From positions 1 to 64,000 of the IMG/VR virus record IMGVR_UViG_3300009788_000106: a stretch of DNA of 64,000 nucleotides; one strand, 5' to 3'. This document shows positions 1,700 to 63,465 of the stretch, in pieces. Position numbers and translations under genes: made by a program. The stretch's first letter is position 1. Each line of letters opens with the position of its first letter. Under the pieces are notes generated by a model. That model worked only from the letters and a program-made list of their open reading frames with translations, ran no database searches and was not told the origin of the DNA. This DNA comes from a virus.

Positions 1700-3772
1700 C
1701 TACTTCCAGATCCCACCAGCCAGTTCAACGGCTTCCTGCCCGAGCTGGGTCCGGTACTTGGTGACCAGCCGCTGACACGCTACTGCCATGGGACCGGTTA
1801 AGGAAACCTTCGAGGCCATCTCATGCCCGAACACTACATCCCAGCGGTTGAACCCGGCTCCGTCCAACTCCCTGGCACCGTCACACATGCCCGCTAGCCG
1901 CCTCATCGCATTGTGCACTGCGTCGATCTGGGCCGGCGTAATGGTGAGGCGGGCCAATTCCTTTTTCTCGTCCTTGGTGAGTTCCGCCTTCTGCCGGAGT
2001 ACTTCCGCCCGCTTCTCCGGTCCTAGCACCGTGGTGAGCTTGCTAGGCACGTTTACCGGTACCGCTACGGTCTCCCGCGGAGTACCTTGGATGTCTAGGA
2101 TGCGGTCCTGCACGTTTTGCTTCGAGACTAGGATGTGGGCCATGCGGCACTGTACTGAACCCTCGACTACGAAGTGCTCAACGAAAACCGAGTCGGTCTG
2201 GCCGATGCGGTGGCACCTGTCCTCACACTGAGTGACGTTGCCCGGTACCCAATCCAGTTCGGCAAAGACAACGTGGCTTGCGGCGGTAAGGGTTAGCCCG
2301 GTACCCGCGGCGATGATGTTGCCCACGAACAAGGTGACTGCCGGGTCATTCTGGAACCGGTCAACCGACATGTGCTTGTTCGCTGAGGTAGTCCCTCCGA
2401 TTACCAGGACTGCCCGGTCGGAGAACTTGGCATAGATGGCCTTGGCAATGTCGCGGTGGTGGCAGAAGCAAACCACCTTGTGACCCGGAGTGCTGAGCAC
2501 ATTCTCAAGGTGCTCAAGGACCGACGGTAGCATCCGCTGGGCAACTGCGTGCCGCGTCTTGGACATGGTCTCGAAGGCCAGTTCCATGAGGTTCTCCAGT
2601 TTGGCCACAGCCGTTTTGTACTCTTCCTCATGTGTGTCCGGGTCCAAGTCCTTCAGTTCGCTGTTCACCGCGGCCACCTTGGCAAAGGCTTCTTCCGCCC
2701 CGGCTTCATCGTCGCCCAGCAGATCCGAGATCAGTTCCTTGGGAAGCTCGACCACTTTGCGGAGCTTGGCCGGCAGTTCCTTGAGCACGTCAATCTTCAG
2801 GCGCCGGATCATCACCGTCTCCCGCAGATACCGTTGCAGTTCGGCCTCATTGCTGCTGCCGTCAAACTTCCACCCATACTGAGTCTTGATGGCTCCGCAG
2901 TACCGGTTAACGAATCTCCACCAATTCTTGAAGATACCCAAGGACCAGAGGATGCCGAAGGCCTCGACTGGTTTGTTCGGGATCGGGGTTCCGGTAAGGT
3001 ACACGCGCTTGCGGGTGTTGAGACCGGAGATGGGTTCCTTGCCAATGGCAAAGTCCTTGCGGCTGCTGTCCCAGCGGCCCCACCAGCCCAGTACTGCCTG
3101 CGACCGCTTGGCCTCAGGACTCTTCAGGAAGTGGGCTTCGTCACACACGACCATGTCCCACTGAACCGACCGGAGCCAGCCAGCGTGCCGGTCTGCCAGT
3201 TCGTAGTTCATGATGACCACGTCGGTGCTCGGCAGGCTGTCACCATTGGTAATGCCGATGGTAAGGTTGACCACCAGCCAGCGTACCAGTTCCTGCAGCC
3301 AGTTGAGCTTGAGATGCGCCGGGCACATAATGAGGATCTTGCGGAGGGTTTTGTCGAAGTTGATTGCCCCGGCGACTTGGATGGTCTTGCCCAGCCCCAT
3401 CTCATCGGCCAGCAGAGTGCAGGCCCGGCTTACGATCCACCAAATCCCGGCAAGCTGGAAGGGGAAGTACTTGAAACCTTTGGGCGCGTCAACCTTGATG
3501 CTAGCGTCGGTGGCCCGGCTCGCCTCGGTTGCGGCGTTCTTGGCTTCGATCTTTTTGTTGTGGGTCTCGACCGCCTTGGCAGGGTCCTTGGTAAGGTTTG
3601 CTGCCTTGGCACTGTCATCGGTCCACCAGACTTTCCGTCCGGGGTTGCCCGGGAACCGTTTCCATGTGAAGCCGGCCGCTTTCGGATATGCCCGGAAGTC
3701 ATAGCCGCCTTGAAAAACATAGATGTCCTTGCCGCCGACTGCCTCTTTGATTACTGACCATGTTTGTTCCAT
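1700..3772 (-). CDS. SNF2/RAD54-family DNA-dependent ATPase/helicase
   Basis: Motifs LGKTIQ (Walker A-like), VVCDEAHFLK (DEAH), LTGTPIPN and a C-terminal helicase domain. The ATG at 3772 sits 5 nt after a -10 element, so the transcript is leaderless (the ORF track extends to a GTG at 3787). Confidence 0.85.
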   Translation of the reverse strand: MEQTWSVIKEAVGGKDIYVFQGGYDFRAYPKAAGFTWKRFPGNPGRKVWWTDDSAKAANLTKDPAKAVETHNKKIEAKNAATEASRATDASIKVDAPKGFKYFPFQLAGIWWIVSRACTLLADEMGLGKTIQVAGAINFDKTLRKILIMCPAHLKLNWLQELVRWLVVNLTIGITNGDSLPSTDVVIMNYELADRHAGWLRSVQWDMVVCDEAHFLKSPEAKRSQAVLGWWGRWDSSRKDFAIGKEPISGLNTRKRVYLTGTPIPNKPVEAFGILWSLGIFKNWWRFVNRYCGAIKTQYGWKFDGSSNEAELQRYLRETVMIRRLKIDVLKELPAKLRKVVELPKELISDLLGDDEAGAEEAFAKVAAVNSELKDLDPDTHEEEYKTAVAKLENLMELAFETMSKTRHAVAQRMLPSVLEHLENVLSTPGHKVVCFCHHRDIAKAIYAKFSDRAVLVIGGTTSANKHMSVDRFQNDPAVTLFVGNIIAAGTGLTLTAASHVVFAELDWVPGNVTQCEDRCHRIGQTDSVFVEHFVVEGSVQCRMAHILVSKQNVQDRILDIQGTPRETVAVPVNVPSKLTTVLGPEKRAEVLRQKAELTKDEKKELARLTITPAQIDAVHNAMRRLAGMCDGARELDGAGFNRWDVVFGHEMASKVSLTGPMAVACQRLVTKYRTQLGQEAVELAGGIWK

Positions 3773-3777
3773 GACTA

Positions 3778-3806
3778 AAAATACCACGGTTTTGCCTGGC
3801 CGTCAA
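3778..3806 (-). promoter_or_regulatory. class I promoter: TTGACG-N17(GCCAGGCAAAACCGTGG)-TATTTT, then tagtc-ATG (leaderless)
   Basis: On the minus strand: TTGACGGCCAGGCAAAACCGTGGTATTTTtagtcATG. One member of a family of about 10 near-identical copies. Confidence 0.5.
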
Positions 3807-3859: not shown

Positions 3860-4132
3860 CTAGCGCAGGACTGGCTGCCGGTACCAGCCCGGCCCCGAAA
3901 GGGTCTCAGTCTCTCTGGCTTCCCGTGCGTGCCAGCAGGTCCACTCGGCTACGATCCGCCAGCCGCCCCAATCGTACTTTGCCTTGGCAGCCATGAGTTC
4001 CTCCGGCGTGCGGACGAAGTACACATAAATCTTCCAGCGGTTCGTCTCCAGGATTGAGCCGGGGTTTGCGGCTTGGACTTTCTTTGCCTCTGCCTTGGCT
4101 TGCTTGTTGGTTTGGGGTTTGCGCCGTTCCAT
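3860..4132 (-). CDS. hypothetical protein (90 aa), leaderless
   Basis: ATG at 4132-4130 lies 5 nt downstream of the -10 element CACTAT of a class I promoter. The ORF track extends to an upstream GTG. Confidence 0.45.
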   Translation of the reverse strand: MERRKPQTNKQAKAEAKKVQAANPGSILETNRWKIYVYFVRTPEELMAAKAKYDWGGWRIVAEWTCWHAREARETETLSGPGWYRQPVLR

Positions 4133-4137
4133 GACCC

Positions 4138-4166
4138 ATAGTGACACGGTTTTGCCTGGCTGTCAA
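4138..4166 (-). promoter_or_regulatory. class I promoter: TTGACA-N17(GCCAGGCAAAACCGTGT)-CACTAT, then gggtc-ATG
   Basis: Reverse complement of 4138-4166 read directly from the sequence. Confidence 0.5.
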
Positions 4167-4190: not shown

Positions 4191-4212
4191 CTAGTTGACT
4201 TTAGTCAACTAG
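4191..4212. promoter_or_regulatory. perfect 9-bp inverted repeat CTAGTTGAC-ttta-GTCAACTAG upstream of the terminase gene
   Basis: Palindrome seen directly. It contains two opposed TTGAC hexamers and is followed 8 nt later by cgTACCATGTAcc, a class-II-like element. Confidence 0.4.
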
Positions 4213-4296
4213 CTGTGCGTACCATGTACCAGTAGCGAGATTCACGGTAACGCGCTTCCAGTGGGAGCACCTGGCAACTCTGATGGTGCCCTATCT

Positions 4297-5688
4297 ATGG
4301 AAATGCGCAGACAACAGTACGACGCCGGTGTTATGGCCGGGTATGAATCCCAACTGCAAGCGCAGGAGGATGCCGGCGTTAACTGGGCGGCGAACCTCAT
4401 TCCCCGAATGTCCAAGTACTGCCCGCACATCGCCACCGAACGCCAGACCTGTGCGCTGCTCCTGAATGATTATCTGGAGCTATTCTTCGGTGGGGCGGCT
4501 GGCGGTGGCAAGTCCGACTACCTGCTGATGGCAGCACTCCAGTACATCGACGTGCCAGGTTACAACGCACTGATCCTCCGCCGCACGTTTAGCCAATTGA
4601 ACATGGCCGACTCGATCCTACACCGTGCGCACCAGTGGCTGCAGGCAACCGATGCTCAGTGGGAAGGCAAACACAATCGGTATGTATTCCCAGCCGGGTC
4701 CTCGATCCAGTTTGGGTACCTGCAACACGAGAACGACAAGTATCAGTACGATTCTGCTGCCTTCCAGTTCATTGGGTTTGACGAGCTGTCCCAGTTCCTT
4801 GAGTCCCAGTACACATTCCTGTTCGGTCGCCTCCGCAAACCCGTCGGCTTCCCGGTACCACTACGCATGCGCGGAGCCTCGAACCCTGGCGGCGTGGGCC
4901 ACCTATGGTCCAAGAAACGGTTTATCGAGAAGAGCACCGTTCGCGGCAAGAGCATTTTTATCCCGTCGCTGCTAGAGGACAACCCTCATATCGATCAGGT
5001 GGCGTACGAGGAATCTCTATCGATGCTCGACCCCATCACGCGGGCGCAGAGACGCTGGGGCGACTGGAACGCCAGTCTCGAAGGTGCCCTGTTCAAGTTC
5101 GAATGGTTCCAAAACTACTGCGACATCGCGGCCGTTCCCTTTGAGTGCAGCCGCATGCGCTTCTGGGATCTTGCCGGCACGGAGGCCAAGAAGAAGTCCA
5201 CGAACCCTGACTGGACTGTCGGCGTTCGTGTGGCCATGGCGCCGAACGGTATTTGGTACATCGAGGACGTGCGCCGCGACCGCCTGTCTCCCCTCCGGGT
5301 TGAAGAACTGGTCTCGGCTACAGCCAAGCTGGACGGGCGGAATTGTCGTATCAGGATGGAGCAGGAACCCGGCGCCTCAGGCAAAACGGTTATCGCCCAG
5401 TACCTGCGGCAATTGGTAGGGTATGACTTTGCGGGTATCTGCGCCAGCGGCCCGAAGTATGTACGCTGGAGGCCCTTTGCGGCGCAGGCCGAAGGTGGCA
5501 ACGTCACACTAGTGAATGGACCTTGGAACCACGAATGGCTGCAGGAGATCTGTTCGGTTACACAGACCATGGAGCACGAACACGACGATCAGGCGGATGC
5601 CACGTCGGGTGCGTTCAACACATTGGCACTTGAGCCGGCCGTCGAATACGGCGTGTCCCGGCTAGGTGGCGGAAGGCGACAACGATGA
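4297..5688 (+). CDS. terL: terminase large subunit
   Basis: Walker A region LFFGGAAGGGKSDYLL, with ATPase and nuclease-domain architecture typical of TerL. The start is uncertain (ATG at 4297 or 4303; the ORF track begins at a GTG at 4261). Confidence 0.8.
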   Translation: MEMRRQQYDAGVMAGYESQLQAQEDAGVNWAANLIPRMSKYCPHIATERQTCALLLNDYLELFFGGAAGGGKSDYLLMAALQYIDVPGYNALILRRTFSQLNMADSILHRAHQWLQATDAQWEGKHNRYVFPAGSSIQFGYLQHENDKYQYDSAAFQFIGFDELSQFLESQYTFLFGRLRKPVGFPVPLRMRGASNPGGVGHLWSKKRFIEKSTVRGKSIFIPSLLEDNPHIDQVAYEESLSMLDPITRAQRRWGDWNASLEGALFKFEWFQNYCDIAAVPFECSRMRFWDLAGTEAKKKSTNPDWTVGVRVAMAPNGIWYIEDVRRDRLSPLRVEELVSATAKLDGRNCRIRMEQEPGASGKTVIAQYLRQLVGYDFAGICASGPKYVRWRPFAAQAEGGNVTLVNGPWNHEWLQEICSVTQTMEHEHDDQADATSGAFNTLALEPAVEYGVSRLGGGRRQR

Positions 5689-6302
5689 AATTTCAAAGAG
5701 CGGAGCGACCCATTGAAGTGAAGAAGGACGGTGACAGCTACGTCCCGGCAGGCAGGTGCCAGGTGCAGGAGGTACTATACGAAGGCCAAAACATAATGCC
5801 TTTGGTGCTGAGCATTGTTAAGCAGATCCCCATTCCACCAGACATTCGGGTGGACCACGATGCAGTCGTGGCGGAGGCCCTGTTTGGACTGAGCAAAGCA
5901 ATCCCCCTGTTTGATGGCACCCGTGGAGCCAAGTTTAGCACGTTCGCCTTCACCCGGATTCGTGGTGCCATCCTGGACATGATCCAAAGGGAACGCAAGT
6001 ACACGACCCGGTTTCAGCTTGAGCACCCTGCCGACTTCGATCTTCAAGAAAGCACAACGGACTTGGAAGCCGAGATCGATAAGCGCACACTGTTCCTCAA
6101 AGTGTCCAAGGTCCTCGAAGAGCGTGTACCGGTTCTAGAGGCGACTGTGATCATTCGGTCGTTCCTTGAAGGCCGCTCCGATGAGGAGATTGGGGCCGAA
6201 CTTGGGATGGACGAGTTCGACGTCCCCGATATCCGGTCACGGGGTTTGGCCATGGTCCGGGAACACTTCCCGGGCTGTCTCGCGATTATTAACAGGCAGT
6301 AA
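5685..6302 (+). CDS. sigma-70 family RNA polymerase sigma factor (regions 2 and 4)
   Basis: Region 2: DAVVAEALFGLSKAIPLFDGTRGAKFSTFAFTRIRGAILDMI. Region 4-like C-terminus: SDEEIGAELGMDEFDVPDIRSRGLAMVREH. The ATG overlaps the terL stop (ATGA). Confidence 0.7.
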   Translation: MKFQRAERPIEVKKDGDSYVPAGRCQVQEVLYEGQNIMPLVLSIVKQIPIPPDIRVDHDAVVAEALFGLSKAIPLFDGTRGAKFSTFAFTRIRGAILDMIQRERKYTTRFQLEHPADFDLQESTTDLEAEIDKRTLFLKVSKVLEERVPVLEATVIIRSFLEGRSDEEIGAELGMDEFDVPDIRSRGLAMVREHFPGCLAIINRQ

Positions 6303-6316: not shown

Positions 6317-7672
6317 ATGAACTTTGTTACAGGTATCCAGAACTTTTTTGGCATGAAGGGCTCAGGCCCGCAAGCACTAGGGCACGTCTCCCTGATGTTC
6401 CAGTCAGGCACTAGCGGTGGTCTGTTTGGTGGCAAAGGGAACTTCACGTACAAGCAGGCGGTGACCGAAGGCTACAAGCAGCTGGTCTGGGTCTACCGCT
6501 GTAACCGGTCCATCGGTGAGGCGGTGGCGTCCGTCCCGTGGAAGGCCTACAAGAAAGCGGCCGATGGCACGGAGACACCACTGCCGGGTCACCCGCTCGA
6601 ACTGCTGATGGAGAAGCCAAACCCGTTCTACAGCCGCAAGGAATTCTTCGAGAACTGGGCAACGAACCTTGGCTTGGCAGGCGAGTGCTTCTGGGAAATC
6701 GTGTACGTCGGCCGGCCGGCTGTACCTTTCCAGTTGTTCCCCCTGCGCCCGGATTGGATGACGGTGAAGCCACACCCGACCAACTATATCGACCGGTACG
6801 AACTCGACACGGGGCAGGGCAAACCGATCAAGTACAAACCGGTCAACATCATCCACATGAAGTACATGGACCCGCTGAATGAGTACCGCGGGCAATCGCC
6901 TTTGACCGCAGCGGCCAGGACAGTGCAGACCGAGAACGCAGCCGTCAAGTGGAACAAAGCAATCCTTGACAATTCAGCGGTGCCCGGTGGATTCCTCAAG
7001 GTGCCAGCGCAGGTCCTTCAACAGCAACAGAAGTCCGAGATCGAGGACAGCCTTGAAGATGGGTTCTCCGGTGACAACGTGCACCGCCCGATGGTCCTAT
7101 GGGGCGGCATGGAATGGCACCAGATGGGGATGAACCAAAAGGAAATGGAATTCCTTGCGCAGCGCAACGTGAACAAGTATGAGATCTGCGCCATCTACGG
7201 GGTGCCACCTCAGATCGTTGGTGCGCAGGAGGACCCGACGTACAGCAACTACTCTGTTGCCCGCCTGTCGTTCTGGGAGGACAGCATCATGGGACTGCTG
7301 GATTGGCTACAGTCCAGAGTCAATACCAGACTTGCCCCGTTCTGGGGTGACGACATTGTCATGCGTTACGATCTGTCGGAAGTCCCGGCAATGCGCCAGG
7401 CCTTCGGGGAGAAGATGGAGCAGGCGGAACGTCTGGTGAAAATGGGATACCCGATCAATGCCGTGAACGAACGGCTACACCTTGGTCTCCCGAATGTGGA
7501 ATGGGGTGACGTGGCTTGGATGCCCGCTACCCTTCAGCCTATCAGTACCGCTGAGGCACCAGCCCCTGCCGACATAGTCCCGGTAGCCGATGACGACGAT
7601 GAGCCAGTCGAGGAGCCGGAAGTCGATGATGATGAAGGTGTCGATGACCCGGTCGAGGACGGCGACGCCTAA
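6317..7672 (+). CDS. portal protein
   Basis: 451 aa in the portal position, with an acidic C-terminal tail (DDDDEPVEEPEVDDDEGVDDPVEDGDA) and an RBS GGGAG upstream. Confidence 0.75.
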   Translation: MNFVTGIQNFFGMKGSGPQALGHVSLMFQSGTSGGLFGGKGNFTYKQAVTEGYKQLVWVYRCNRSIGEAVASVPWKAYKKAADGTETPLPGHPLELLMEKPNPFYSRKEFFENWATNLGLAGECFWEIVYVGRPAVPFQLFPLRPDWMTVKPHPTNYIDRYELDTGQGKPIKYKPVNIIHMKYMDPLNEYRGQSPLTAAARTVQTENAAVKWNKAILDNSAVPGGFLKVPAQVLQQQQKSEIEDSLEDGFSGDNVHRPMVLWGGMEWHQMGMNQKEMEFLAQRNVNKYEICAIYGVPPQIVGAQEDPTYSNYSVARLSFWEDSIMGLLDWLQSRVNTRLAPFWGDDIVMRYDLSEVPAMRQAFGEKMEQAERLVKMGYPINAVNERLHLGLPNVEWGDVAWMPATLQPISTAEAPAPADIVPVADDDDEPVEEPEVDDDEGVDDPVEDGDA

Positions 7673-7820: not shown

Positions 7821-9668
7821 ATGAGCAAGCAAAGCCTAAGTGGCAAGCCCCGGTCGGTGGCCGAGTACGTTCGCGGCGCGTTTGCGCCCTTGGCCTACCT
7901 TCACCCTCCGTTGAACGAGCTGTACCCACTGGATGAGGACGACTATGACCCGCACGTGGCAAGTGTGCTAATGGAGTTCAAGGCCATCGAGAAGCAGCGA
8001 CGGGCCTTCGAGGCCACCTTCATTCGCCGCATGATTCCAATTCTGGCACGGGCAAGGTCTGCCGCCCTGGCTGACTATCGTGCCGGGTCAACCCCATTAC
8101 ACATTGGCCGGGCGGCCGAGCGAGAACTGAAGAAGCTTGCCTCGGTGATTCGGAGTCTGTACGATACCGTCGGACTCCACTTTGCCAAGCGGGCGCGTGC
8201 GCAGGTCAAAGACGAGTTCGATGCCGTCGAACTGAACGACATGCCCGAGTTGGTCCAGTACAACAAAACCACCACCGCCGCCAAGGTCACCGCCATTTCA
8301 ACGGCCACGCGAGACGGGATTCGGAGGTCACTGGACCGGGCCCTCCGGGATGGTACCTCATCGGACATTGTTGCCCGGGACCTAAAGGACAGCTACAAGT
8401 TCTCAAGCCGCAGGGCCAAGCTCATCGTACAGACCGAGATCGTGGCGGCCAGTAACGCTGGCACGCATTTCAGTCTCAACAAATTCCTGCGGGCCGACAA
8501 CATGACGAAGGCGTGGCTGCACGCCGGTGACCTCCGGGTCCGGCACTCGCACATCATTGCCGGCACCACGCAGAAGAAGGTTGACTTCGACAAGCCCTTT
8601 GAAGTGGGCGGCGCGAAGCTCATGTTTCCCGGTGACAGTTCACTAGGTGCACCGCCACGGGAGACCATCTCCTGCCGGTGTACCGTGACGTACAAGCGCA
8701 AGTCCTCCCGGCGCCCCTTGTCTCAGATCCAGACGGACCCGACGATTGGAGACGTGGCACGTGTGGTCAGTGTCGTGAAGCCCAAACCAAAGCCCAAGCC
8801 GAAGCCCAAGCCCAAGCCCACAGGCTACGCAACCGAGGCGGAACGGAATGCCGCCTTCAAGAAGCTCAAAAAGGATTACGCCAAGTTCAAGAAGTCACTG
8901 GCTGCCCGGAAGAAGGCGCTAAATGTAAAGTTGGTCCAAACCCATAAGGACTTGATAAAGGTCGGCGACGATCTGGTGAAGGCGCAGCGCGCACTGCTCC
9001 GGGACCCCGCCAAGATCCGGGCCCTTGAGAGCCAGTTTCGCAAACTCCAGTTTGATGCAGGGCGCTGGTCAAGGTCCTTGCGCAAGCTGGACACTGCGGA
9101 GCGTGGGTTCTTTGCCAAGAACTTTTCGCAGGGCGTTAACAAGCTGGTCCTCGAAGCCTCCTCCTCAGCACAAGGCGGGATGATTGGTTCCAAGACCGTC
9201 AAGGAAGCACAGACGTGGTTGCGCAAAATTGCAGGCAAACAGTTCAAGCACGCCCCACGTGGTACAGTGCAGGTGAAAACAATCGGGCAGGGACGTCGGG
9301 CGTACGAACTGGATGGGCGGGTTTTTATTGCCCCGGAGGATCGTACTGAAATCCTTATCCATGAGCTTGGTCACACCTTCGAGTCCCGGAACAAGGGAGC
9401 CCGAGACGCAGCAAACGCATTCCTAAAGAAGCGCACCGTCGGCGACCGGAAGGTACGGCTGTACCCGGACAATCCAGACCTTGCCGATGAGTTCTACAAG
9501 GAAGACGAGTGGGTAGGGAAGGGGCACAGCAAATACGCAGGCAAGATCTACAGTCACAAAGGCACTGAGATTACGTCCATGGGGCTTCAGCGGCTGTACA
9601 AAAAGCCGGGCAATTTCCTGGAACAAGATGAAGAGTTCGTGCGGTACCTGTGGGACCTGTTCAACTAG
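7821..9668 (+). CDS. head morphogenesis protein (Mu F / SPP1 gp7-like) with a C-terminal extension containing a (KP)7 repeat
   Basis: Mu-F family hallmarks: AASNAGTHF, DLRVRHSH, MFPGD, ISCRCTV. KPKPKPKPKPKPKP lies at 8778-8819. The ATG at 7821 follows GGGAG. Confidence 0.7.
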   Translation: MSKQSLSGKPRSVAEYVRGAFAPLAYLHPPLNELYPLDEDDYDPHVASVLMEFKAIEKQRRAFEATFIRRMIPILARARSAALADYRAGSTPLHIGRAAERELKKLASVIRSLYDTVGLHFAKRARAQVKDEFDAVELNDMPELVQYNKTTTAAKVTAISTATRDGIRRSLDRALRDGTSSDIVARDLKDSYKFSSRRAKLIVQTEIVAASNAGTHFSLNKFLRADNMTKAWLHAGDLRVRHSHIIAGTTQKKVDFDKPFEVGGAKLMFPGDSSLGAPPRETISCRCTVTYKRKSSRRPLSQIQTDPTIGDVARVVSVVKPKPKPKPKPKPKPTGYATEAERNAAFKKLKKDYAKFKKSLAARKKALNVKLVQTHKDLIKVGDDLVKAQRALLRDPAKIRALESQFRKLQFDAGRWSRSLRKLDTAERGFFAKNFSQGVNKLVLEASSSAQGGMIGSKTVKEAQTWLRKIAGKQFKHAPRGTVQVKTIGQGRRAYELDGRVFIAPEDRTEILIHELGHTFESRNKGARDAANAFLKKRTVGDRKVRLYPDNPDLADEFYKEDEWVGKGHSKYAGKIYSHKGTEITSMGLQRLYKKPGNFLEQDEEFVRYLWDLFN

Positions 9669-10747: not shown

Positions 10748-10986
10748 CAAGTTCTGCTGCGGTTGCCACATCGCCGGGGTCTGGGGGTCACTCAGTCCTC
10801 GGCATTTTTTTGCCTGGCAAACCTTCTTGCGATAAGTAACAGTGAGAGGCGTTACCCGCACTTCAATGTCTCACTCGCCCACGTTGGTTAGAGCCGAGAC
10901 GAAGCCGCCCGATGCAGTCCTCTTAGAAGCAGCAACATTATCGGGTGGTTTCCTTTAACCCACTCACAACTGAAAAGGAGAAGCCA

Positions 10987-13826: not shown

Positions 13827-14285
13827 ATGGCCAAAAGCAAAGTGAAGGTGACACTCGTCGGCAAGGAGGTACTCCGCCAGAAGATCCGCCTACTGGACTT
13901 CCACGCGAAGGCCGAAGTACGCGATGCCGTCAACGAGTCGGCCCTCAATATTCAGCGCCAGGCAAAAGAGCTATGCCCTGTCCGTAAGAAGGGCAAAATC
14001 CTCGGCGGTCGCCTGCGGTCCTCAATCAAACTTGAGTTCTTGAACAACGGGATGACCGGGGAAGTTGGAACGAATGTGGACTATGCACAATTCGTGGAAT
14101 TTGGTACGGGCAGGCGTGGCAGCAGCAGCCAGCACCCACCACTTCCATCGGGGTACGTGCATGGTAGCCGGGCGGGCATGTTGGCCCAGCCCTTCCTATA
14201 CCCTGCGTGGGACCGGGAGCGAAACCCGTTCAACCGCAAAATACGCAGGGCAATGAAAGCAGCGGCACGGAGGTCAACGTCATGA
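13827..14285 (+). CDS. HK97 gp10-like tail component
   Basis: VDYAQFVEFGTG and PFLYPAW motifs characteristic of HK97_gp10 family proteins. Confidence 0.6.
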   Translation: MAKSKVKVTLVGKEVLRQKIRLLDFHAKAEVRDAVNESALNIQRQAKELCPVRKKGKILGGRLRSSIKLEFLNNGMTGEVGTNVDYAQFVEFGTGRRGSSSQHPPLPSGYVHGSRAGMLAQPFLYPAWDRERNPFNRKIRRAMKAAARRSTS

Positions 14286-14964: not shown

Positions 14965-16604
14965 GACCTCCCCAATTCATAACCAAGGTAGTTCGCAATA
15001 TACCGTGGTACTTCTGTTCGGCGTGTCCTTTTGACATACCGGACCTGCTGTCCATGAAACAGCACATTTCCTACATGCACAGCCCGGCCGACTGGAAGAA
15101 GCGGCACCCGCTGGTCGCGTGCATACTGGTGACGTCGGAGAAGCGCAAGGAGTTCTGGCCGGAGGCTGTGGCCGACTTCATGGCGCAGGACTGGCCACAC
15201 AAGGAGCTGGTGGTCGTCACGGAAAGCGTTGACGGTTTCCGCAGTTACTTGCCAGACGACACCAATGCTGTCCGGCTCATTAAGTGTGACCCGGACACGA
15301 CCATCGGCGAACGGCGCAACATGGCTGTACGTGCCAGCAAGGCAATTCACTTCGCTATCTGGGATGACGACGACCGCCAGGCACCATACGCCCTGTCCGA
15401 GAAACTAAAGCTGTTCAAGGGAGCGACACATGTCGTTGCTTGTTCAGAGCCTTGGTACTACGACGTGGATGAGGACCGCAGCTACCACTTCAAACACGGG
15501 GACCGCACCATCCTGGTCGGTGGCACAATGCTGTTCCATCGTGACGCCTGGCGCAACTACCCATTCCCGGATCGGTCACGGGCCGAAGACCAAATGTTCA
15601 TTAGGCGTATTGGCATGCACCGGCGTGCCACCTGTACACCTGAGCTAACCGTCGTGGGTATCCACAGCCGTAACACCTCCCGCAAGACTAGGACTGACGA
15701 CTGGGAACGTATGGGGGATAACATTGCTGCCGAGTTCTACTGCAAGGGCAGGCGCCGCGTGGCCCTGGCAAGCCTGTCGTGGGAGATGGGGCAAGTCACC
15801 ATTGACGGGATCGAAGCTCTGGTCCTTGAGGCGGCAAGACTCCAGAAGTTCAGGCGGGTTATCCCTGAGGTCATCATCGTGGACAATGGTTCAACCGACG
15901 GCACCCAGAAACTTATTGCCCTTCACCTTGACCGCTGGCGGAAGACCTGCCCGGTCCACATCATTTTCAACACCGAGAACAAGGGTAACTCGATCGCCCG
16001 AAACCAGATGCTTGACTTGGCGGTGGGGCTTGGCATGGATCACATCCTGTTCACCGACTGTGACCTCGAAGTCATCCCTCACTCAGTAGGCGGAATGGTA
16101 GACCACTTAGAGCAGCACCCAGAAGTCGGGTGCATCGGCATGTGGTCCGGTGGACATGCCAAGCAACGGCGACTCACTACCAAGCGCCTGCTAAGTCTGG
16201 AGGAGTTCCCAATCTTCAAGGATAGCAAGCAGGACGTCGCGTGGACACAGTATGGCTTGTTCCGCATGCAGCCCTTCGCCGACGGTATACGCTTCGAGAC
16301 AGGCGGTCCCTTTGGTGGCCCTGGCTGGGGACTGGAGGACAACGACATGCGCTACCAGCTTGAGTGCGCTGGCTGGCGTACAAACCACATGGAAGGCGCA
16401 ACGTACCTTCACCGCGCCCGCAGTTCCTCAGTCCGCATTCTAGAGAGCCAAGGGTTCAACCATAAACAAGCGTTTGAGGACCGCACCGAATTCCAGCGGC
16501 GCAAGTGGGCGGGTGTCGACGTGCCGATAATTAACAACAGATGGAAGCAGCAGAAAAAAGGTGGCCGGGTCACCGAACAGACTGAGAGGAGTTCAACAGC
16601 ATGA
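14961..16604 (+). CDS. bifunctional glycosyltransferase: N-terminal zinc finger plus two GT2 (GT-A fold) domains
   Basis: Domain 1: ILVTSEKRKEFW...AIWDDDD (DxD). Domain 2: VIIVDNGSTDGT...ILFTDCDLE. It lies inside the tail structural operon. Confidence 0.7.
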   Translation: MRPPQFITKVVRNIPWYFCSACPFDIPDLLSMKQHISYMHSPADWKKRHPLVACILVTSEKRKEFWPEAVADFMAQDWPHKELVVVTESVDGFRSYLPDDTNAVRLIKCDPDTTIGERRNMAVRASKAIHFAIWDDDDRQAPYALSEKLKLFKGATHVVACSEPWYYDVDEDRSYHFKHGDRTILVGGTMLFHRDAWRNYPFPDRSRAEDQMFIRRIGMHRRATCTPELTVVGIHSRNTSRKTRTDDWERMGDNIAAEFYCKGRRRVALASLSWEMGQVTIDGIEALVLEAARLQKFRRVIPEVIIVDNGSTDGTQKLIALHLDRWRKTCPVHIIFNTENKGNSIARNQMLDLAVGLGMDHILFTDCDLEVIPHSVGGMVDHLEQHPEVGCIGMWSGGHAKQRRLTTKRLLSLEEFPIFKDSKQDVAWTQYGLFRMQPFADGIRFETGGPFGGPGWGLEDNDMRYQLECAGWRTNHMEGATYLHRARSSSVRILESQGFNHKQAFEDRTEFQRRKWAGVDVPIINNRWKQQKKGGRVTEQTERSSTA

Positions 16605-17162: not shown

Positions 17163-17540
17163 ATGAACGAGATCGTGAATCCCGTTGTTTCGATCCAGTT
17201 GGATCGACCCCGCAACCTTCGCATTACCTTCAACACCTTGGTTGAGATTGAACAGGAAACCGGCAAGAGCATTATGGACCGGGCAACCTGGCTAGAGCTC
17301 GGTGTCAGGGACCTTCGCATTATCCTGTGGGCTGCACTCAAACACGAAGACCCCTCCCTGACGATTGACGACGTGGGCCGAATGCTCGGGCCGCAAAACA
17401 TGGAGGACGTGGCAAACGCCATCGGCAAGGCCTTCGAGGTAAGCATGGCAAGGAGTGAGCAGGGCCCTTTAGCCCCGAAGGAGGAGAAGGAACCGACCAG
17501 CAAAGCAGCGGAATTGAAGGCAGTCGCGGCCGCTGGTTAA
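17163..17540 (+). CDS. tail assembly chaperone (gpG-like)
   Basis: LRITFNTLVEIEQETGKSI is typical of tail assembly chaperones; it sits immediately upstream of the tape measure gene. Confidence 0.65.
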   Translation: MNEIVNPVVSIQLDRPRNLRITFNTLVEIEQETGKSIMDRATWLELGVRDLRIILWAALKHEDPSLTIDDVGRMLGPQNMEDVANAIGKAFEVSMARSEQGPLAPKEEKEPTSKAAELKAVAAAG

Positions 17541-22277: not shown

Positions 22278-22301
22278 CGATAACTAACACTGGAGGACAA
22301 C

Positions 22302-27719: not shown

Positions 27720-27774
27720 GGCGGGCAAGCGATAATCAACCCTTACTGGATGAAATAGCTAAGGGAGACCCGCA

Positions 27775-32099: not shown

Positions 32100-32276
32100 C
32101 TACTTGCTGGCCTGGCCGAGTTTGAAGGCTGCCTGAAGGGCTGCTTCCAAGTTCCAAACCGTCTGGTTGCTGTGGTCCAGCCGATCCGAGTTGCGGGTTT
32201 TGAGGTTCGGCAGTCCGAAGTGGCGGGTGGCGATCTTGTTGATCTGGGTTTTTGTTAGGCCTTTGTTGCTGTCCAT
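32100..32276 (-). CDS. hypothetical small protein (58 aa), leaderless
   Basis: ATG lies 5 nt after the -10 TAGTAT of a class I promoter. Product MDSNKGLTKTQINKIATRHFGLPNLKTRNSDRLDHSNQTVWNLEAALQAAFKLGQASK. Confidence 0.35.
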   Translation of the reverse strand: MDSNKGLTKTQINKIATRHFGLPNLKTRNSDRLDHSNQTVWNLEAALQAAFKLGQASK

Positions 32277-32281
32277 ACCTA

Positions 32282-32310
32282 ATACTACTGCGGTTTTGCC
32301 TGGCCGTCAA
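32282..32310 (-). promoter_or_regulatory. class I promoter TTGACG-N17(GCCAGGCAAAACCGCAG)-TAGTAT, then taggt-ATG
   Basis: Direct reading of the reverse complement. Confidence 0.5.
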
Positions 32311-32371: not shown

Positions 32372-32656
32372 CTACCTACTGTTGATCAGATCGAACAAGG
32401 TGGCCGCAGTCCGCACCGCCTTATTGTGTACGTCGACCTGAGCACTGATGGCCCTGGCCCGGCCCTCGAAACCGAATGTGTAGATGGGGTCCTGGTCGTC
32501 GGGGACCGGATCGGAGATGGCGTCGGCCATGCTGTTTAAGTCGAGGGCCAGCTGCTTCATTGCCATCTCAAGTTGGCCGCGGGTCACATTGGCCTTGTCT
32601 CGGCTTCTCTGCCGTGACTCTAGTACTCTCTGGTGTAGTGTGCGGTTGTTTGGCAT
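32372..32656 (-). CDS. hypothetical protein (94 aa), leaderless
   Basis: ATG at 32656 lies 5 nt after the -10-like CACCAT of a class I promoter. Confidence 0.45.
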   Translation of the reverse strand: MPNNRTLHQRVLESRQRSRDKANVTRGQLEMAMKQLALDLNSMADAISDPVPDDQDPIYTFGFEGRARAISAQVDVHNKAVRTAATLFDLINSR

Positions 32657-32661
32657 GTCTC

Positions 32662-32691
32662 ATGGTGCCACGGTTTTGCCTCGGTTGTCAA
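32662..32691 (-). promoter_or_regulatory. class I promoter TTGACA-N18(ACCGAGGCAAAACCGTGG)-CACCAT, then gagac-ATG
   Basis: Direct reading of the reverse complement. Upstream on the minus strand is a hairpin plus U-tract terminator (32692-32740) serving the preceding gene. Confidence 0.45.
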
Positions 32692-32748: not shown

Positions 32749-32970
32749 TTACTGGTTCGCCTTGTACTCCAATACGTCGTCCCAGGCGGCGTTTACGGTG
32801 TCAAACTGATCCCAGTACTCAATACCGTCGGAGTGTTCCGCCTCGGCAATGTACTCACGTACAATCTGGGTCATACCATACCGTCGCCCCAAAAGTTGTA
32901 ACTTACCTTTCAGTACCTCCCGGTCAATCCGGTTGTCCATTTCATTTGAGTTGTTAATGTTTTGTACCAT
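32749..32970 (-). CDS. hypothetical protein (73 aa)
   Basis: ATG at 32970. A degenerate class-I-like element (CGGCAAAACCGTGG-TATCCT-taatt-ATG) lies upstream. Confidence 0.4.
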   Translation of the reverse strand: MVQNINNSNEMDNRIDREVLKGKLQLLGRRYGMTQIVREYIAEAEHSDGIEYWDQFDTVNAAWDDVLEYKANQ

Positions 32971-33118
32971 AATTAAGGATACCACGGTTTTGCCGATTTG
33001 TACCTTTTATTTTGCCGAAAACGCAAAATAGTTTGGCCCTAAAAATGTAGCCTTCCCCGACGGCAAACCGGTCAAACCTGCGTACTATGGAACATAGCAC
33101 GCAAGGTGGTGGAAACCT

Positions 33119-34969: not shown

Positions 34970-34991
34970 TTTTGTTTTTGCCCCGTACCAT
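34970..34991 (+). promoter_or_regulatory. class II motif TTTTGTTTTTGCCCCGTACCAT
   Basis: One of 5 copies of TTTGCCCCGTAC(C/T)AT, all on the plus strand upstream of genes. Confidence 0.35.
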
Positions 34992-35079
34992 GTTCGTGAA
35001 GGACAAGAAAACCAAACTTGACAGCACAAATTCAACGCGGTAGCTTAGGGAAGTCACCTCACGGGAAAGGGGAACAGGA

Positions 35080-39028: not shown

Positions 39029-39601
39029 ATGGCAACGGCACAACCGATCATTGAAATCAACAAAGTCACCATGGACCGGCTGGCCGGTATGGTCTACAAG
39101 ATATGTGGGGAGGCGTACCAGCAAATGCCGGAGTGCCACAAACGCTGGATCGACCTGGGAGACTTGGTCTCTGAGGCCTGGATCAAGGTGTACCGCAAAT
39201 GGCACCTGCATGACCCGACCCGCGGCAAGGACTCCACTTTCGTGTTCACCGTGGTCCGCAACACAATGCGTGATAGGCTGAAGCAGCTGCGGGTATACAC
39301 ACGGTTTTGTCACGTCGTCAGTCTTGAGGAAGACTCCATCAAAGAACCCGAACGGATTGACGCTGGCTCGGCAGAACAGTCGGAGGCAGAGGATCGTGTC
39401 GGTAAGTTCCTGGGACTGGCTTCCCCAGCCCTTCGCACATTCATGCAAGTCCATTTCTTCCAGCGGCAACCTGGCCGGCCAAACTTTAACAAGTTCCTGC
39501 CGGAGGTCCTCCGCCTCCGTCGGCTAACCGGCTGTTCGGTCCAGGACTTCATGCTGTGCGCAGGCGGAGAGGTGAACGGGGCAAATGCCAAAAGAGTATA
39601 G
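39029..39601 (+). CDS. ECF-like sigma factor (region 2 clearly present)
   Basis: DLVSEAWIKVYRKWHLHDPTRGKDSTFVFTVVRNTMRDRLKQ matches sigma-70 regions 2.1-2.4. Region 4 is less clear. Confidence 0.5.
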   Translation: MATAQPIIEINKVTMDRLAGMVYKICGEAYQQMPECHKRWIDLGDLVSEAWIKVYRKWHLHDPTRGKDSTFVFTVVRNTMRDRLKQLRVYTRFCHVVSLEEDSIKEPERIDAGSAEQSEAEDRVGKFLGLASPALRTFMQVHFFQRQPGRPNFNKFLPEVLRLRRLTGCSVQDFMLCAGGEVNGANAKRV

Positions 39602-40169
39602 CATAGCGAAGACCCTTCTGTGCTTGTCGTGTGCGCGCAAGTTCTCTTTGCTTGACGTGTCCTCCTACCTGTACTTCCCAAAGACTCACACGTGCTTCGA
39701 GTGTTACATCAGGCTTCAGTTGAGACCCGTGGCCGAGTCGTGCTTCGGCCACCAGCCCAGCGACTCAGGTTACACATATGACCCGCAGTGCCCGGAGTGT
39801 TCCATGTTTTGCAGGGACCGGTTCATATGTCCACAGTTCATATCAGGGGAGGCCATCATGGCAAAGGAACTAGCAATGGAGCACAGACAACTGATCCTTG
39901 ATCGGTTCAAGGCCGGCCGCCTCAGATCCGGCGAGGAGAAACGCAAGGCTAAGTGGGCGGAAACACCCTTTGCCAAAGGGTCAATCCTGGAGGCCGTGTT
40001 CAAGAAGTGTGTGGCTGGCACCACATACACCAAGCTCGGGAAGTACTTGGGTGCAATAGGAGTCGCAAACCCGAAGCAGTACCTAACAGCAATGCGCCGG
40101 CAGGACGCGCATGGTCTCAAATGGGAGTTCAAAGATGACGAACAAGGCAACATCGAAATCAACTACTAA
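39585..40169 (+). CDS. Cys-rich hypothetical protein (putative zinc-binding)
   Basis: Multiple CxxC pairs in the N-terminal half (CLSCARK, CFECY, CPECSMFC). Confidence 0.4.
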   Translation: MPKEYSIAKTLLCLSCARKFSLLDVSSYLYFPKTHTCFECYIRLQLRPVAESCFGHQPSDSGYTYDPQCPECSMFCRDRFICPQFISGEAIMAKELAMEHRQLILDRFKAGRLRSGEEKRKAKWAETPFAKGSILEAVFKKCVAGTTYTKLGKYLGAIGVANPKQYLTAMRRQDAHGLKWEFKDDEQGNIEINY

Positions 40170-41133
40170 CGGCAGCGACTGGAAAGGTCCACAGCCCGAC
40201 GACACGTACCCGGTCATTTACTTCTCCGGCTTCCGGCACTACGCCGATGAGGGTATCAGGGAGAAGGAAATTTTCGAGCAAACCAAATGGGATGCCCGGT
40301 GCTTGTCCTACGCCTACTGTGGTGAGGGCTCCGACCTGTACATGAAGATCGCGGCTGAGACCCTCGCCTACTGCCAGGAGAATGACATTCGCATCCTGCT
40401 GGACTCAGGTGCCTTCTCATTCCGGGATACCCTTGCCAGCGACGACCTCGACTTGGTGGACCGGTTCGCAACCACTTACGCCAAGTGGATCAAGACCCGG
40501 CGCCAGGCCTTCGACTTCTACGTCAACCTCGACTACGTGCGCAACGCCTCCGCCTGCTGGAAGATGCAAATGCTTCTGGAGCGTAAAGGCCTCAGGCCGG
40601 TCCCGGTGTTCCATGGTGACAGTTCGATGGACTGGATGCGGAAGTACATCGACCGGGGGCACAAGTTGATTGGCCTTGGTACGCTTGGGTCCGGCTGGTC
40701 CACAGGCGTGAAGTACAAGTTCTACGACCGGTGTTTCAACCTGGCAGAACAGCATGGCGTCTACCTTCATGGCTTCGCCGTCACCGGTTCCAGTATGTTC
40801 CGGTTCCCATGGCACTCGGTGGACTCGGCAAGCTGGCTGAAGGCCGCTGTCTTCGGTGCCATCATCCTTTGCGATCCGTTCAGGGAGCAGGTTACAACAT
40901 GGAAGATTAGCGACCAGCCCACCAAGCGATCCGGCCACCAGCCGGGCGTAATCCAACGGCTGGAAGGTACCGCCCGGGAAGCTGTGATTGAGAAGCTGGA
41001 GGCGCAAGGCTACACATGGGACAGGCTGACTACCTCATCGTGGGAGCGTTCCCGGTTCAACATTCAGCAGTTCCGAGACGCCGTGGCAACGCGCGCCCGC
41101 CCGGTTTACAAAGGCACATGTGACTTGATTTGA
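40135..41133 (+). CDS. dpdA: DpdA-like 7-deazaguanine DNA transglycosylase (queuine tRNA-ribosyltransferase superfamily)
   Basis: ILLDSGAFSF motif and TIM-barrel-like length, immediately upstream of folE. Alternative ATG at 40111. Confidence 0.55.
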   Translation: MTNKATSKSTTNGSDWKGPQPDDTYPVIYFSGFRHYADEGIREKEIFEQTKWDARCLSYAYCGEGSDLYMKIAAETLAYCQENDIRILLDSGAFSFRDTLASDDLDLVDRFATTYAKWIKTRRQAFDFYVNLDYVRNASACWKMQMLLERKGLRPVPVFHGDSSMDWMRKYIDRGHKLIGLGTLGSGWSTGVKYKFYDRCFNLAEQHGVYLHGFAVTGSSMFRFPWHSVDSASWLKAAVFGAIILCDPFREQVTTWKISDQPTKRSGHQPGVIQRLEGTAREAVIEKLEAQGYTWDRLTTSSWERSRFNIQQFRDAVATRARPVYKGTCDLI

Positions 41134-41149
41134 CTTTGCCCCGTACTAT
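41121..41149 (+). promoter_or_regulatory. class II motif TGACTTGATTTGACTTTGCCCCGTACTAT
   Basis: Sequence read directly, 16 nt upstream of the folE ATG. Confidence 0.35.
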
Positions 41150-41165
41150 ACACCAAGGAGATCAA

Positions 41166-45499: not shown

Positions 45500-45515
45500 T
45501 TATGCCCCGTATAAT
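45495..45515 (+). promoter_or_regulatory. class II motif CTTGATTATGCCCCGTATAAT overlapping the polA stop
   Basis: Sequence read directly. Confidence 0.35.
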
Positions 45516-53686: not shown

Positions 53687-53703
53687 GTTTTGCCCCGTAC
53701 CAT
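53686..53703 (+). promoter_or_regulatory. class II motif AGTTTTGCCCCGTACCAT, 5 nt upstream of the queD ATG
   Basis: Sequence read directly. Confidence 0.35.
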
Positions 53704-53708
53704 AGGGC

Positions 53709-55096: not shown

Positions 55097-55125
55097 TTGA
55101 CGTCTCGGCAAAACCGTGTCACTAT
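55097..55125 (+). promoter_or_regulatory. class I promoter TTGACG-N17(TCTCGGCAAAACCGTGT)-CACTAT
   Basis: Sequence read directly, upstream of the vWA gene. Confidence 0.45.
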
Positions 55126-56261: not shown

Positions 56262-56280
56262 AGCTCAGGCAAAATAGTAG

Positions 56281-56309
56281 TTGACATTTGCCGGTTTGCC
56301 TGGCACTAT
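56281..56309 (+). promoter_or_regulatory. class I promoter TTGACA-N17(TTTGCCGGTTTGCCTGG)-CACTAT
   Basis: Identical over about 45 nt to the copy at 60233. Confidence 0.5.
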
Positions 56310-56325
56310 TGGTTAGAGGTTAAAA

Positions 56326-60229: not shown

Positions 60230-60232
60230 TAG

Positions 60233-62373: not shown

Positions 62374-62688
62374 ATGCCGAAACAAGAACTGAAACTGAAG
62401 CACCCCGAGCGCCTATGGGTGCTGTCTGTTGAATACACCGAAGGTGGTGGCTCTGAGGTCTGGTGGCCAGTCAACAACCCGCCATGGAGACTGTACGAGG
62501 CAGGGGAAGAGTTCGAGATCACCTTTGCCCGCTCCGTTGACGGCAAGGTGGTGCTTATGGAACTGAGGGATGAGCAGGGCCGGCATGCGGGCTGGGACGT
62601 TGACAAGTGCCCCGCCGAACGCTCGGATTCGGACGACTTGTTTGAGCTTTGCCCCGTACCATGTAACAAACCGGAGACCACCGCATGA
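62374..62688 (+). CDS. hypothetical protein (104 aa)
   Basis: RBS AAAGGAGATCG. Its 3' end contains a class II motif (62647-62662). Confidence 0.4.
   Translation: MPKQELKLKHPERLWVLSVEYTEGGGSEVWWPVNNPPWRLYEAGEEFEITFARSVDGKVVLMELRDEQGRHAGWDVDKCPAERSDSDDLFELCPVPCNKPETTA
62647..62662 (+). promoter_or_regulatory. class II motif CTTTGCCCCGTACCAT
   Basis: Sequence read directly. Confidence 0.35.
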
Positions 62689-63280: not shown

Positions 63281-63465
63281 AAGGGGAAGAGAACCAAGGG
63301 AGAAGGGAAGGCAAAATGAGACGCTAACGGCGATAACCAACTCGGGCAAGACAGGTAGACGGGCGCTGCTCCAGACAATAGGGGCAAGGCGTCTAATACC
63401 TGTTAGGGGCAACACACCGGGGCAGAGGAGACAGAGGACTACAGAGTGACTAGGGAACCAGCAGG
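63281..63465. repeat. five dispersed copies of an AGGGGCAA-like 8-mer (with one degenerate copy) in a 260-nt non-coding region
   Basis: caAGGGGCAAAgg, atAGGGGCAAGg, ttAGGGGCAACa, ccGGGGCAGAgg, gcAGGGGCAAAg. Confidence 0.35.

Follow-up and report, generated by a model that had tools for sequence, protein, structure and literature searches.

The window analyzed here comprises 64,000 nucleotides (nt) of IMG/VR record IMGVR_UViG_3300009788_000106 (parent contig 67,778 bases) and covers the greater part of the genome of an uncultured tailed phage, in which two genes encode proteins of the sigma-70 family. The first, which we call sigma 1 (205 amino acids (aa)), lies at 5685..6302 between the genes for the large terminase (terL) and the portal protein, and the second, sigma 2 (190 aa), lies at 39029..39601 among the replication genes. 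Both open reading frames are on the plus strand where a first-pass annotation of the window had placed them, and the two peptides quoted there are present in the translations. The window is densely coding, with a G+C content of 57.6% and 0 tRNA genes, and its phage gene content includes an HK97-type capsid, a lambda-like tail tube, a MuF protein and genes of the 7-deazaguanine pathway. The portal protein is at most 36% identical to that of any cultured phage, and no nucleotide or useful protein relative of either sigma was found among 50,697 annotated phage records. We found neither sigma family described in the searchable literature, which does not in itself prove that no description exists.

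Position of the sigma 1 gene

The ATG of sigma 1 overlaps the stop codon of terL (ATGA), and to judge from this overlap sigma 1 is translationally coupled to the terminase gene. The order terL, sigma, portal, MuF, prohead protease (S78) and HK97 capsid is the same in 7 of the 7 genomes whose sigma 1 context was compared, namely the window, its sister phage L001 (77% identity), L003 (35%) and L018-L021 (27-32%; contigs of 51-93 kb). The placement between terL and portal, which the first-pass annotation had pointed out as unusual, is hence real and a conserved trait of this lineage.

Upstream of terL lies a putative promoter region (Table 1) that would drive both terL and sigma 1. Together with a leader of ∼70 nt it is 80% conserved in L001, whose -10 element reads TATAAT. 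The palindrome within it and the non-coding leader (window 4192-4296, L001 2657-2761) have no Rfam match, as no known RNA family was found by the Rfam scan anywhere in the window; they could be the operator of a regulator, a pac/cos-related site or a structured leader.

Identity and architecture of sigma 1

Both proteins score above the cut-off of the Pfam model Sigma70_r2 (24 bits), sigma 1 with 40 bits (E-value 3.4e-10) and sigma 2 with 42 bits (7.4e-11), and both thus belong to the sigma-70 family as the first-pass annotation had proposed. That annotation had also called regions 2 and 4 clear in sigma 1. This is so for region 2; the Pfam region 4 models taken alone stay below cut-off (E-value 0.02), and region 4 is recognized instead from the NCBIfam model TIGR02937 for the sigma-70 family (60.1 bits, cut-off 42.9), which aligns over positions 11-163 of 165 and so covers regions 2 and 4, from the predicted structure, and from related proteins, several of which match the region 4 models PF04545/PF08281. 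The AlphaFold2 model of sigma 1 has a mean predicted local distance difference test (pLDDT) score of 72.5, with residues 40-115 and 125-205 forming confident blocks and residues 1-34 disordered, and the region 4 helices (150-161, 166-173 and 180-194) are modeled with a pLDDT of ∼90. When this model was compared with the PDB by Foldseek, the top matches were all sigma factors (SigD, WhiG and SigA).

Classification with profile hidden Markov models, a check that the first-pass annotation had itself suggested with assignment to groups of extracytoplasmic function (ECF) sigmas in mind, separated the two proteins: sigma 1 passes TIGR02937 and is nearest to FliA/WhiG rather than ECF, and sigma 2 fails TIGR02937 (32.5 bits against the cut-off of 42.9). 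The best sequence matches of sigma 1 are NCBIfam TIGR02479 and the WhiG/FliA equivalogs, and in the PDB the WhiG entries 6pfv (E-value 2e-10) and 7lq4 (aligned over residues 36-193), although at 47.9 bits it stays far below the subfamily cut-off of TIGR02479 (189.6). Alignment with FliA-like proteins matches regions 2 and 4 and leaves a gap of ∼50 residues where region 3 would be. Sigma 1 has a two-domain architecture in common with ECF sigmas, but its sequence is nearer to group 3.

A profile search of 5.8 billion proteins placed sigma 1 in a clade set clearly apart, with about a dozen members of 194-198 aa (E-values of 1e-62 to 1e-35), below which there is a sharp drop to cellular FliA/WhiG proteins (∼1e-16) of 240-270 aa, all of which have region 3. 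No member of the clade matches the region 3 model PF04539. The alignment of the clade keeps the melting segment of regions 2.2-2.3, K-F-S-T-[FY]-A...R-I-x-G-A. Region 4.2 is canonical in most members (S-E-x-E-I-A-K-x-L-x-C-S-x-x-x-V-S-K); the recognition helix of the window protein and of its sister reads F-D-V-P-D-I-R-S-R-G-L, a diverged form. The likeness to FliA, SigD and WhiG therefore covers the best sequence and structure matches, the common region 2 signature KFST[FY]A..RIRGA..D and, in most clade members, the canonical helix-turn-helix of region 4.2, and the differences are the loss of region 3, the location of a phage-encoded gene inside the virion gene array, and that no FlgM- or RsiG-type anti-sigma was seen. 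No prophage copy was found in 185,579 GTDB representative genomes, which returned only weak cellular FliA matches, and a metagenome scan with the sigma 1 alignment gave no matches. We conclude that the 5685..6302 product is very probably a true sigma factor, and by its sequence it appears to be a region-3-less derivative of the FliA/WhiG (sigma-28) branch, in a phage-only clade, and not an ECF sigma.

The position of the gene raises the alternative of a packaging protein, either small-terminase-like or a helix-turn-helix protein that recognizes the pac site. Such a role would explain the place of the gene between terL and portal and is in keeping with its translational coupling to terL; region 4 is itself a helix-turn-helix, and no small terminase is recognizable in the window or its relatives, the candidate proteins having no PHROG match. 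Nevertheless, sigma 1 scores above cut-off as a full two-domain member of the sigma-70 family, keeps the promoter-melting segment of region 2.3, has structure matches that are exclusively sigma factors, and shows no sign of the oligomerization core typical of small terminases. The distant relatives moreover hold other conserved, unassigned genes before terL, a possible small terminase among them, although these have no homologue in the window. We regard a packaging protein as highly improbable.

A candidate promoter motif for sigma 1

An unbiased count of 10-mers brought out two non-coding motif families in the window, described below as classes I and II. The first-pass annotation had named two conserved families as the candidate targets of the sigmas; the families are real, but the best candidate target of sigma 1 is a third, class III (CGATAA-N-YAAC), which emerged by inspection and was then tested. 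There are five exact copies in the window against 0.05 expected, all on the plus strand, and at most one in any of 100 shuffles. Enrichment is confined to the extended, strand-specific motif, as CGATAA alone occurs 15 times where 12.5 copies are expected. The distance from the sites to the next start codon is 13-105 nt, and the genes concerned are those for the protease, the capsid, the tail tube, the protein after the tape measure and the protein beside a putative amidase, with near matches before the protease gene and, doubtfully, before portal. No class III motif was found in loci that cover only replication modules.

In promoters of sigma-28/WhiG the -10 element is GCCGATAA, at -15 to -8, with CGATAA as its core and TAAA as the -35 element (PMC8325347, PMC12784957). 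Class III has this core in common with the FliA/SigD/WhiG promoters and, in the distant relatives, also a -35-like element at the same spacing; it differs in lacking the extended -10 'GC' and in having the conserved downstream YAAC. All 7 genomes have the core in the short gap that precedes the prohead protease gene, with a chance expectation of 0.009-0.04 per genome, and the two class III sites comparable in L001 are conserved there. At the protease sites of the distant relatives, the sequences GGGAAAG, GGGAAAAG, GGGCAAG or GGTAGTAG end 15-16 nt before CGATAA, which is the sigma-28 spacing. Under a published sigma-28 search rule (TAAA-N15-GCCGATAA with ≤2 mismatches), L021 has 4 matches where 0.71 would be expected, two of them intergenic, one upstream of the protease gene and one upstream of a 228-aa gene. 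These two L021 sites (14172-14203 and 17495-17526) form a near-identical promoter block of ∼35 nt, TAGGGAAAGARCGACAGAGTCGAGTCGATAACTATG, and the pair shows that a sigma-28-like element can be copied as a unit.

Several observations weigh against pairing sigma 1 with class III. At the class III sites of the window we found neither a conserved -35 element nor an extended -10 'GC', and none of them matches the full sigma-28 consensus. The protease site of L018 satisfies the sigma-28 search rule, but the total for that locus is no higher than chance; in the distant clade CGATAA is reliable only in the gap upstream of the protease gene, with the capsid and tail-tube gaps mostly lacking it; and here, as for all classes, promoters were assigned by motif. 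The missing 'GC' would fit the loss of region 3 in sigma 1, however, and the missing -35 in the window clade would fit the diverged helix of its region 4.2.

Class III sites might alternatively be read by a host sigma-28 or another late regulator, or be RNA signals, in which case sigma 1 could, for example, reprogram the motility regulon of the host. The CGATAA core is that of cellular sigma-28 promoters (PMC8325347), the window sites have no -35, and phage sigmas that act on host programs are known and provide a precedent (PMC9429907); a factor from the sigma repertoire of the host, such as a host sigma-28, may read these sites, which again counts against sigma 1 as the reader. On the other hand, every one of the 7 genomes has both the motif and the sigma gene, even at 27-35% protein identity, a distance at which non-coding sequence would not be expected to persist by descent; the sites occupy only the plus strand, directly before virion genes; and the sigma 1 gene is embedded in, and coupled by translation to, the virion array. 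We therefore consider a reader other than sigma 1 quite improbable and retain class III as its best candidate target.

Two of the class III sites have surroundings of their own interest. The gap between the protease and capsid genes (10781-10944; L001 9230-9438) contains a hairpin, the class III site and a leader of ∼100 nt with an inverted repeat, AGTGAGAGGC...GTCTCACT, and all three are conserved in L001; the same gap in the distant relatives has a different conserved element, GAGCCG...CACTCG. The site at 63331, within the segment 63241-64000, is followed by ∼670 nt without an obvious plus-strand gene in the window, and its target may lie beyond the window end on the parent contig.

Sigma 2 and its Cys-rich partner

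Sigma 2 starts directly after the stop codon of a 5'-3' exonuclease gene, in a series (UvsW-like helicase, DnaB, primase, 5'-3' exonuclease, sigma 2, a 194-199-aa protein, FolE and PolA) whose order is kept in the sister phage at this locus, L011, and in the distant sigma 2 relative L012 (26% identical). Its best NCBIfam and PDB matches are ECF sigmas. A profile search of 1.84 billion representative sequences gave 109 relatives, of which the top ∼30 form a family of their own (165-190 aa) and the weaker matches beyond it are canonical ECF sigmas; scans of viral collections with smaller sigma 2 alignments recovered the sister phage alone. All 31 family members scanned exceed the Sigma70_r2 cut-off. 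When the family was aligned with canonical ECF sigmas by hhalign (probability 99.2%, E-value 2.5e-19), the match covered residues 33-144, that is, region 2, the linker and the first helices of region 4 (...R-V-G-K-F-L-G-L-A-S-P-A-L-R-T-F-M-Q-V-H-F-F), and ended right at the start of the ECF helix-turn-helix. A family signature, E..L.R.TGV...DFR.V, is found in the last 45 residues, and in a profile-profile alignment with sigma 1/FliA only region 2 is aligned.

A point against a complete sigma factor here is that region 4 models matched 0 of the 31 family members at an E-value of ≤0.1; the AlphaFold2 model, built on a 2-sequence alignment, has a pLDDT of 47, too poor to judge the fold. The description of the 39029 product as ECF-like accordingly stands for region 2, the linker and region 4.1 and falls for region 4.2. 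The first-pass annotation had considered that absence of region 4 or of a -35-recognition helix would argue against sigma function; this absence applies in part to sigma 2. On sequence comparison, region 2, the linker and the flap-binding region 4.1 of sigma 2 appear to derive from ECF sigmas, with the canonical -35-reading helix undetectable.

The end of the sigma 2 gene overlaps a gene for a Cys-rich protein (Table 1), which adjoins sigma 2 in three lineages and is 34% identical between the window and L012. It has no match in Pfam, NCBIfam, PHROG or the PDB, and inspection revealed no zinc anti-sigma motif H-x3-C-x2-C. Sigma 2 therefore resembles ECF sigmas in its small size (∼190 aa), in aligning with them through region 4.1 and in being followed by a co-transcribed partner gene, as with many ECF anti-sigmas, but its family differs in the lack of a detectable region 4.2, in its own C-terminal signature, and in a partner that belongs to no known family.

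These features also suit a sigma-derived binder of RNA polymerase, perhaps acting with the Cys-rich partner, that would serve as a decoy or shut-off factor at the β' coiled-coil and the β flap. The core-binding regions 2 and 4.1 are conserved while the DNA-reading helix is undetectable in 31 of 31 members, the conserved partner is always present, and a phage protein that displaces the host sigma, gp79, sets a precedent (PMC12276001). A pure core binder would, however, not need the region 2.3/2.4-like segment (STF..V..N...D) that the family keeps, and the C-terminal signature, which is helix-turn-helix-like, could be a divergent DNA reader. We judge a role as mere polymerase binder to be unlikely.

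Class I and class II motifs

Class I consists of TTGAC, a 17-nt spacing with the conserved spacer CCAGGCAAAACCGTG, a TGn extended -10 and TAnnnT, with a 12-mer that occurs in five exact copies. It precedes the gene for an SNF2 helicase, small minus-strand genes at ∼32-33 kb and genes at 55-62 kb, and by its form it appears to be an ordinary strong host-type promoter that we infer to be early. One such promoter, TTGACA-17-CACTAT, is contained in a 47-nt duplicate of 100% identity (56268-56314 and 60220-60266) that stands before two different genes. At 3770-3806(-), 4130-4166(-), 32274-32310(-), 32654-32691(-), 32968-33003(-), 62025-62061(+) and 53689-53711(+), the last a class II site, the -10 element is only 5 nt from the ATG, so that leaderless mRNAs are implied, a clue to the translation habits of the host. 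A sigma-54-type reading of the TGGCA-containing spacers was rejected since the GG-to-GC spacing is off by one, and GGCAAAAAAAT, considered as a separate motif, is actually the T-tail of minus-strand terminators.

Class II, TTTGCCCCGTACYAT, occurs 7 times in the window at ≤3 mismatches (1.8 expected), and its core CGTACYAT 9 times (1.2 expected). Five sites are good, all of them on the plus strand: they precede the DnaB-primase-exonuclease-sigma 2 operon, FolE, the gene that follows PolA, QueD and a further gene at ∼62.7 kb, and looser variants precede the UvsW-like helicase gene and terL. The site at 34977..34991 is followed by a host-type promoter, TTGACA-N17-TAGCTT, at 35018-35046. Class II recurs four times in L011. 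No conserved -35 was found for it, an ECF-style -35 having been sought 16-17 nt upstream of CGTA.

Is class II read by sigma 2? The 15-nt block is invariant at 5 sites and has no -35, which suggests a dedicated reader, and sigma 2 lies within a class II-driven module, as does the sigma gene of phage 7-11 (PMC4331800). Three points tell against this assignment: the 3' half of the motif is the host-like TAYNAT, the strict form occurs in this phage and its sister alone, and class II does not co-vary with the sigma 2 family across the distance to L012, where GCCCCGT is only mildly enriched and no common class II motif is found. CGTA is a typical -10 core of ECF promoters, such as those of the B. 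subtilis sigmaW and sigmaM type. That sigma 2 reads class II is possible but doubtful.

Class II sites may instead be promoters of the host primary sigma, with a sigmaA-type TAYNAT helped by a phage activator or by sigma appropriation at the TTTGCCCCG block, much as in the MotA/AsiA middle promoters of T4, and sigma 2 would then not be the reader. Within the invariant CGTAYNAT the T, the A and the final A-T are fixed and the middle varies (TACCAT, TACTAT, TATAAT, TACAAT), which is the pattern of a group 1 sigma; the variant before terL in L001 is a perfect TATAAT; and the strict motif is absent from L012 despite the presence of the sigma 2 family there. No candidate activator was identified, however, and the ECF-like CGTA and the invariant block without a -35 are again contrary points. 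We hold this as a serious, if tentative, possibility. The host holoenzyme probably uses at least one, and possibly both, of classes I and II.

Table 1. Coordinates of the sigma genes, their neighbors and the motif sites in the window
Feature	Sequence	Position	Strand	Remarks
Large terminase terL		4261..5688 (start perhaps ATG 4297)	+	Terminase_6C, E-value 2.5e-16; Terminase_6N; first packaging/virion gene
terL promoter region	TAGTTGAC-TTTA-GTCAACTA; GCGTACCAT	4192..4225	+	perfect palindrome (4192-4211), then class II-like -10 (4217-4225)
Sigma 1		5685..6302	+	205 aa; sigma2 at nt ∼5796-5999, sigma4 at nt ∼6123-6269; region 3 absent
Portal		6317..7672	+	Phage_portal, E-value 3.5e-73
Class III	CGATAATTAAA	9993..10003	+	19 nt before prohead protease ATG 10022; CGATAA syntenic in 7/7 genomes
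Class III	CGATAAGTAAC	10830..10840	+	downstream of terminator-like hairpin 10781-10802, upstream of HK97-type capsid gene 10945; conserved in L001
Class III	CGATAATTAAC	16525..16535	+	66 nt before tail-tube gene 16601
Class III	CGATAACTAAC	22278..22288	+	directly after tape-measure stop, 14 nt before ATG 22302
Class III	CGATAATCAAC	27730..27740	+	35 nt before gene 27775, which adjoins a weak amidase-like gene
Class III	CGATAACCAAC	63331..63341	+	near window end; no obvious downstream gene within the window
Weak class III-like	CGATTATTAAC	6283..6293	+	inside 3' end of sigma 1, 24 nt before portal ATG; 1 mismatch; in L001 loosely CGACTATTAAC; doubtful
Class II	TTTGCCCCGTACCAT	34977..34991	+	upstream of operon from gene 35080 via DnaB, primase and exonuclease to sigma 2; conserved in L011
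Class II	TTTGCCCCGTACTAT	41135..41149	+	upstream of FolE; conserved in L005 and L011; related CCCGTATCAT at syntenic L012 site
Class II variant	TATGCCCCGTATAAT	45501..45515	+	just after PolA gene
Class II		53689..53703	+	5 nt before QueD/PTPS ATG 53709; leaderless transcript implied
Class II	TTTGCCCCGTACCAT	62648..62662	+	
Class II variant	AAACCTGCGTACTAT	33074..33088	+	upstream of UvsW-like helicase gene 33119
Class I	TTGACG, 17 nt, TG-n-TATTTT; spacer CCAGGCAAAACCGTG	3778..3806	-	5 nt before SNF2 helicase ATG
Class I, leaderless		4138..4166	-	would drive 90-aa gene diverging from terL
Class I	TTGACG-17-TAGTAT	32282..32310	-	before small minus-strand gene
Class I, two sites		32662-32691, 32976-33003	-	before small minus-strand genes
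Class I		55097..55125	+	
Class I		62025-62053	+	
Class I, identical pair		56281-56309, 60233-60261		repeat family D16
Sigma 2		39029..39601	+	190 aa; region 2 at ∼39125-39298; region 4.1-like helices at ∼39386-39460; C-terminus 39461-39598 family-specific
Cys-rich partner		39585..40169	+	194 aa; overlaps end of sigma 2 by 17 nt; 8 invariant Cys

A predicted transcription program and its relation to known systems

The first-pass annotation had expected two sigmas to imply a phage-controlled temporal program, and distinct promoter-like motif classes do partition by functional module. We consider it somewhat probable that the two sigmas and three motif classes, with class I early, class II for replication and sigma 1 acting on late class III, together make up such a program. 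In this scheme the host primary sigma would read class I and the promoter at 35018-35046, giving the early genes and the replication operon including sigma 2, and class II would raise the expression of the replication and DNA-modification genes. The class II variant guarded by the palindrome would turn on terL and sigma 1, and sigma 1 would then bind host core RNA polymerase and direct it to class III, recognized as a single -10-proximal element. In the sigma-28 register, class III transcripts would begin 2-3 nt past the motif and immediately before the ribosome-binding sites of the virion genes, and the outcome would be a feed-forward boost of late genes. Sigma 2 would act earlier, as a class II factor, perhaps with its partner, or as a modulator of RNA polymerase; this is the weakest step.

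A bolder version appears speculative and rather unlikely to us. Here the sigma between terL and portal would be a self-contained late switch, produced from the packaging operon and then acting on -10-only CGATAA-N-YAAC promoters of the abundant virion proteins, and the ECF-derived protein, with its new C-terminal module and an obligatory zinc-binding partner, would form a two-piece class II factor, so that a three-tier cascade would have been assembled from two cellular sigma lineages. The two-piece factor would be comparable to gp55/gp33 of T4 or gp36/gp79 of phiEco32, with an independent origin.

Phage-encoded sigmas are a classic means of timing control, of which few families (those of SPO1, T4 and phiEco32) have been characterized. 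T4 gp55 is a region-2-only sigma that acts with the co-activator gp33 at -10-only late promoters, and T4 late transcription needs the sliding clamp. Sigma 2 and the Cys-rich protein may be analogous to gp55 and gp33, with the difference that nothing here shows a need for a clamp. SPO1, in which gp28 and then gp33/gp34 form a sigma cascade for middle and then late genes (PMC13401047), shares the logic of such a cascade. No homology was seen with the sigmas of SPO1 or T4, and PHROG yields nothing more specific than families named 'RNA polymerase sigma factor'.

The nearest precedent in function is the sigma of phiEco32, gp36, which reads single-element promoters and has gp79 as its partner (PMC12276001), and in phage 7-11 the sigma gene is reached by promoters of both host and phage type (PMC4331800). 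The likeness to these phages is in a small phage sigma that redirects host core to middle or late promoters with a single element at about -10 and no -35, in a sigma gene reachable from both promoter types, and in a partner without known homology. The motif differs (AATGTA as opposed to CGATAA-N-YAAC or TTTGCCCCGTACYAT), phiEco32 has one sigma where the window has two, the gene positions differ, and no sequence relatedness with the sigmas described here has been demonstrated.

Phage sigmas as such are already known as regulators. Three findings appear new: a sigma-28 derivative that lacks region 3, has its fixed place between terL and portal and comes with a predicted cognate promoter; a family of ECF descent in which no canonical region 4.2 is detectable and which is paired with a Cys-rich protein; and the map of motif classes onto gene modules. 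For sigma 1 this amounts to a complete hypothesis of sigma, promoter and targets that is open to in vitro tests even without a culture of the phage and would show how a flagellar-type sigma can be trimmed and repurposed. The sigma 2 family could show how region 4 of a sigma is replaced or supplemented, and the map of motifs onto modules offers a ready early/middle/late annotation for a lineage without a cultured member.

Other features of the window and its relatives

A set of genes for FolE (41130-41747), QueD/PTPS (53709-54317), a weak radical SAM match (706-1554) and a protein without family (40111-41133), with a segment at 75-464 that is ThyX-like in relatives, suggests DNA modification of the queuosine-precursor, 7-deazaguanine type and thymidylate synthesis. 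The 340-aa product of 40111-41133, which adjoins FolE and has no family match, could be a DNA transglycosylase.

The proteins encoded at 46047-47246 and 57375-58301 have long acidic D/E-rich repeats mixed with P-P-P-K-K-K that dominate the direct-repeat output, and we ask whether they are DNA mimics or nucleoid-associated proteins. In the MuF-like head protein (7821-9668) there is a (KP)n linker, and an H-E-L-G-H metallopeptidase-like motif lies in a C-terminal extension; the protein resembles the polyvalent, possibly ejected, MuF fusion proteins.

Upstream of terL, L003 and L018-L021 have a block of glycosyltransferase and methyltransferase genes, and the genes that immediately precede terL encode two conserved proteins of 220-249 aa and 152-159 aa, both unassigned; none of these is present in the window or L001, where divergent early genes are found instead. 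The terL gene of L021 (7634-9994) encodes a protein of 786 aa with a faint LAGLIDADG match, which suggests insertion of an intein or a homing endonuclease.

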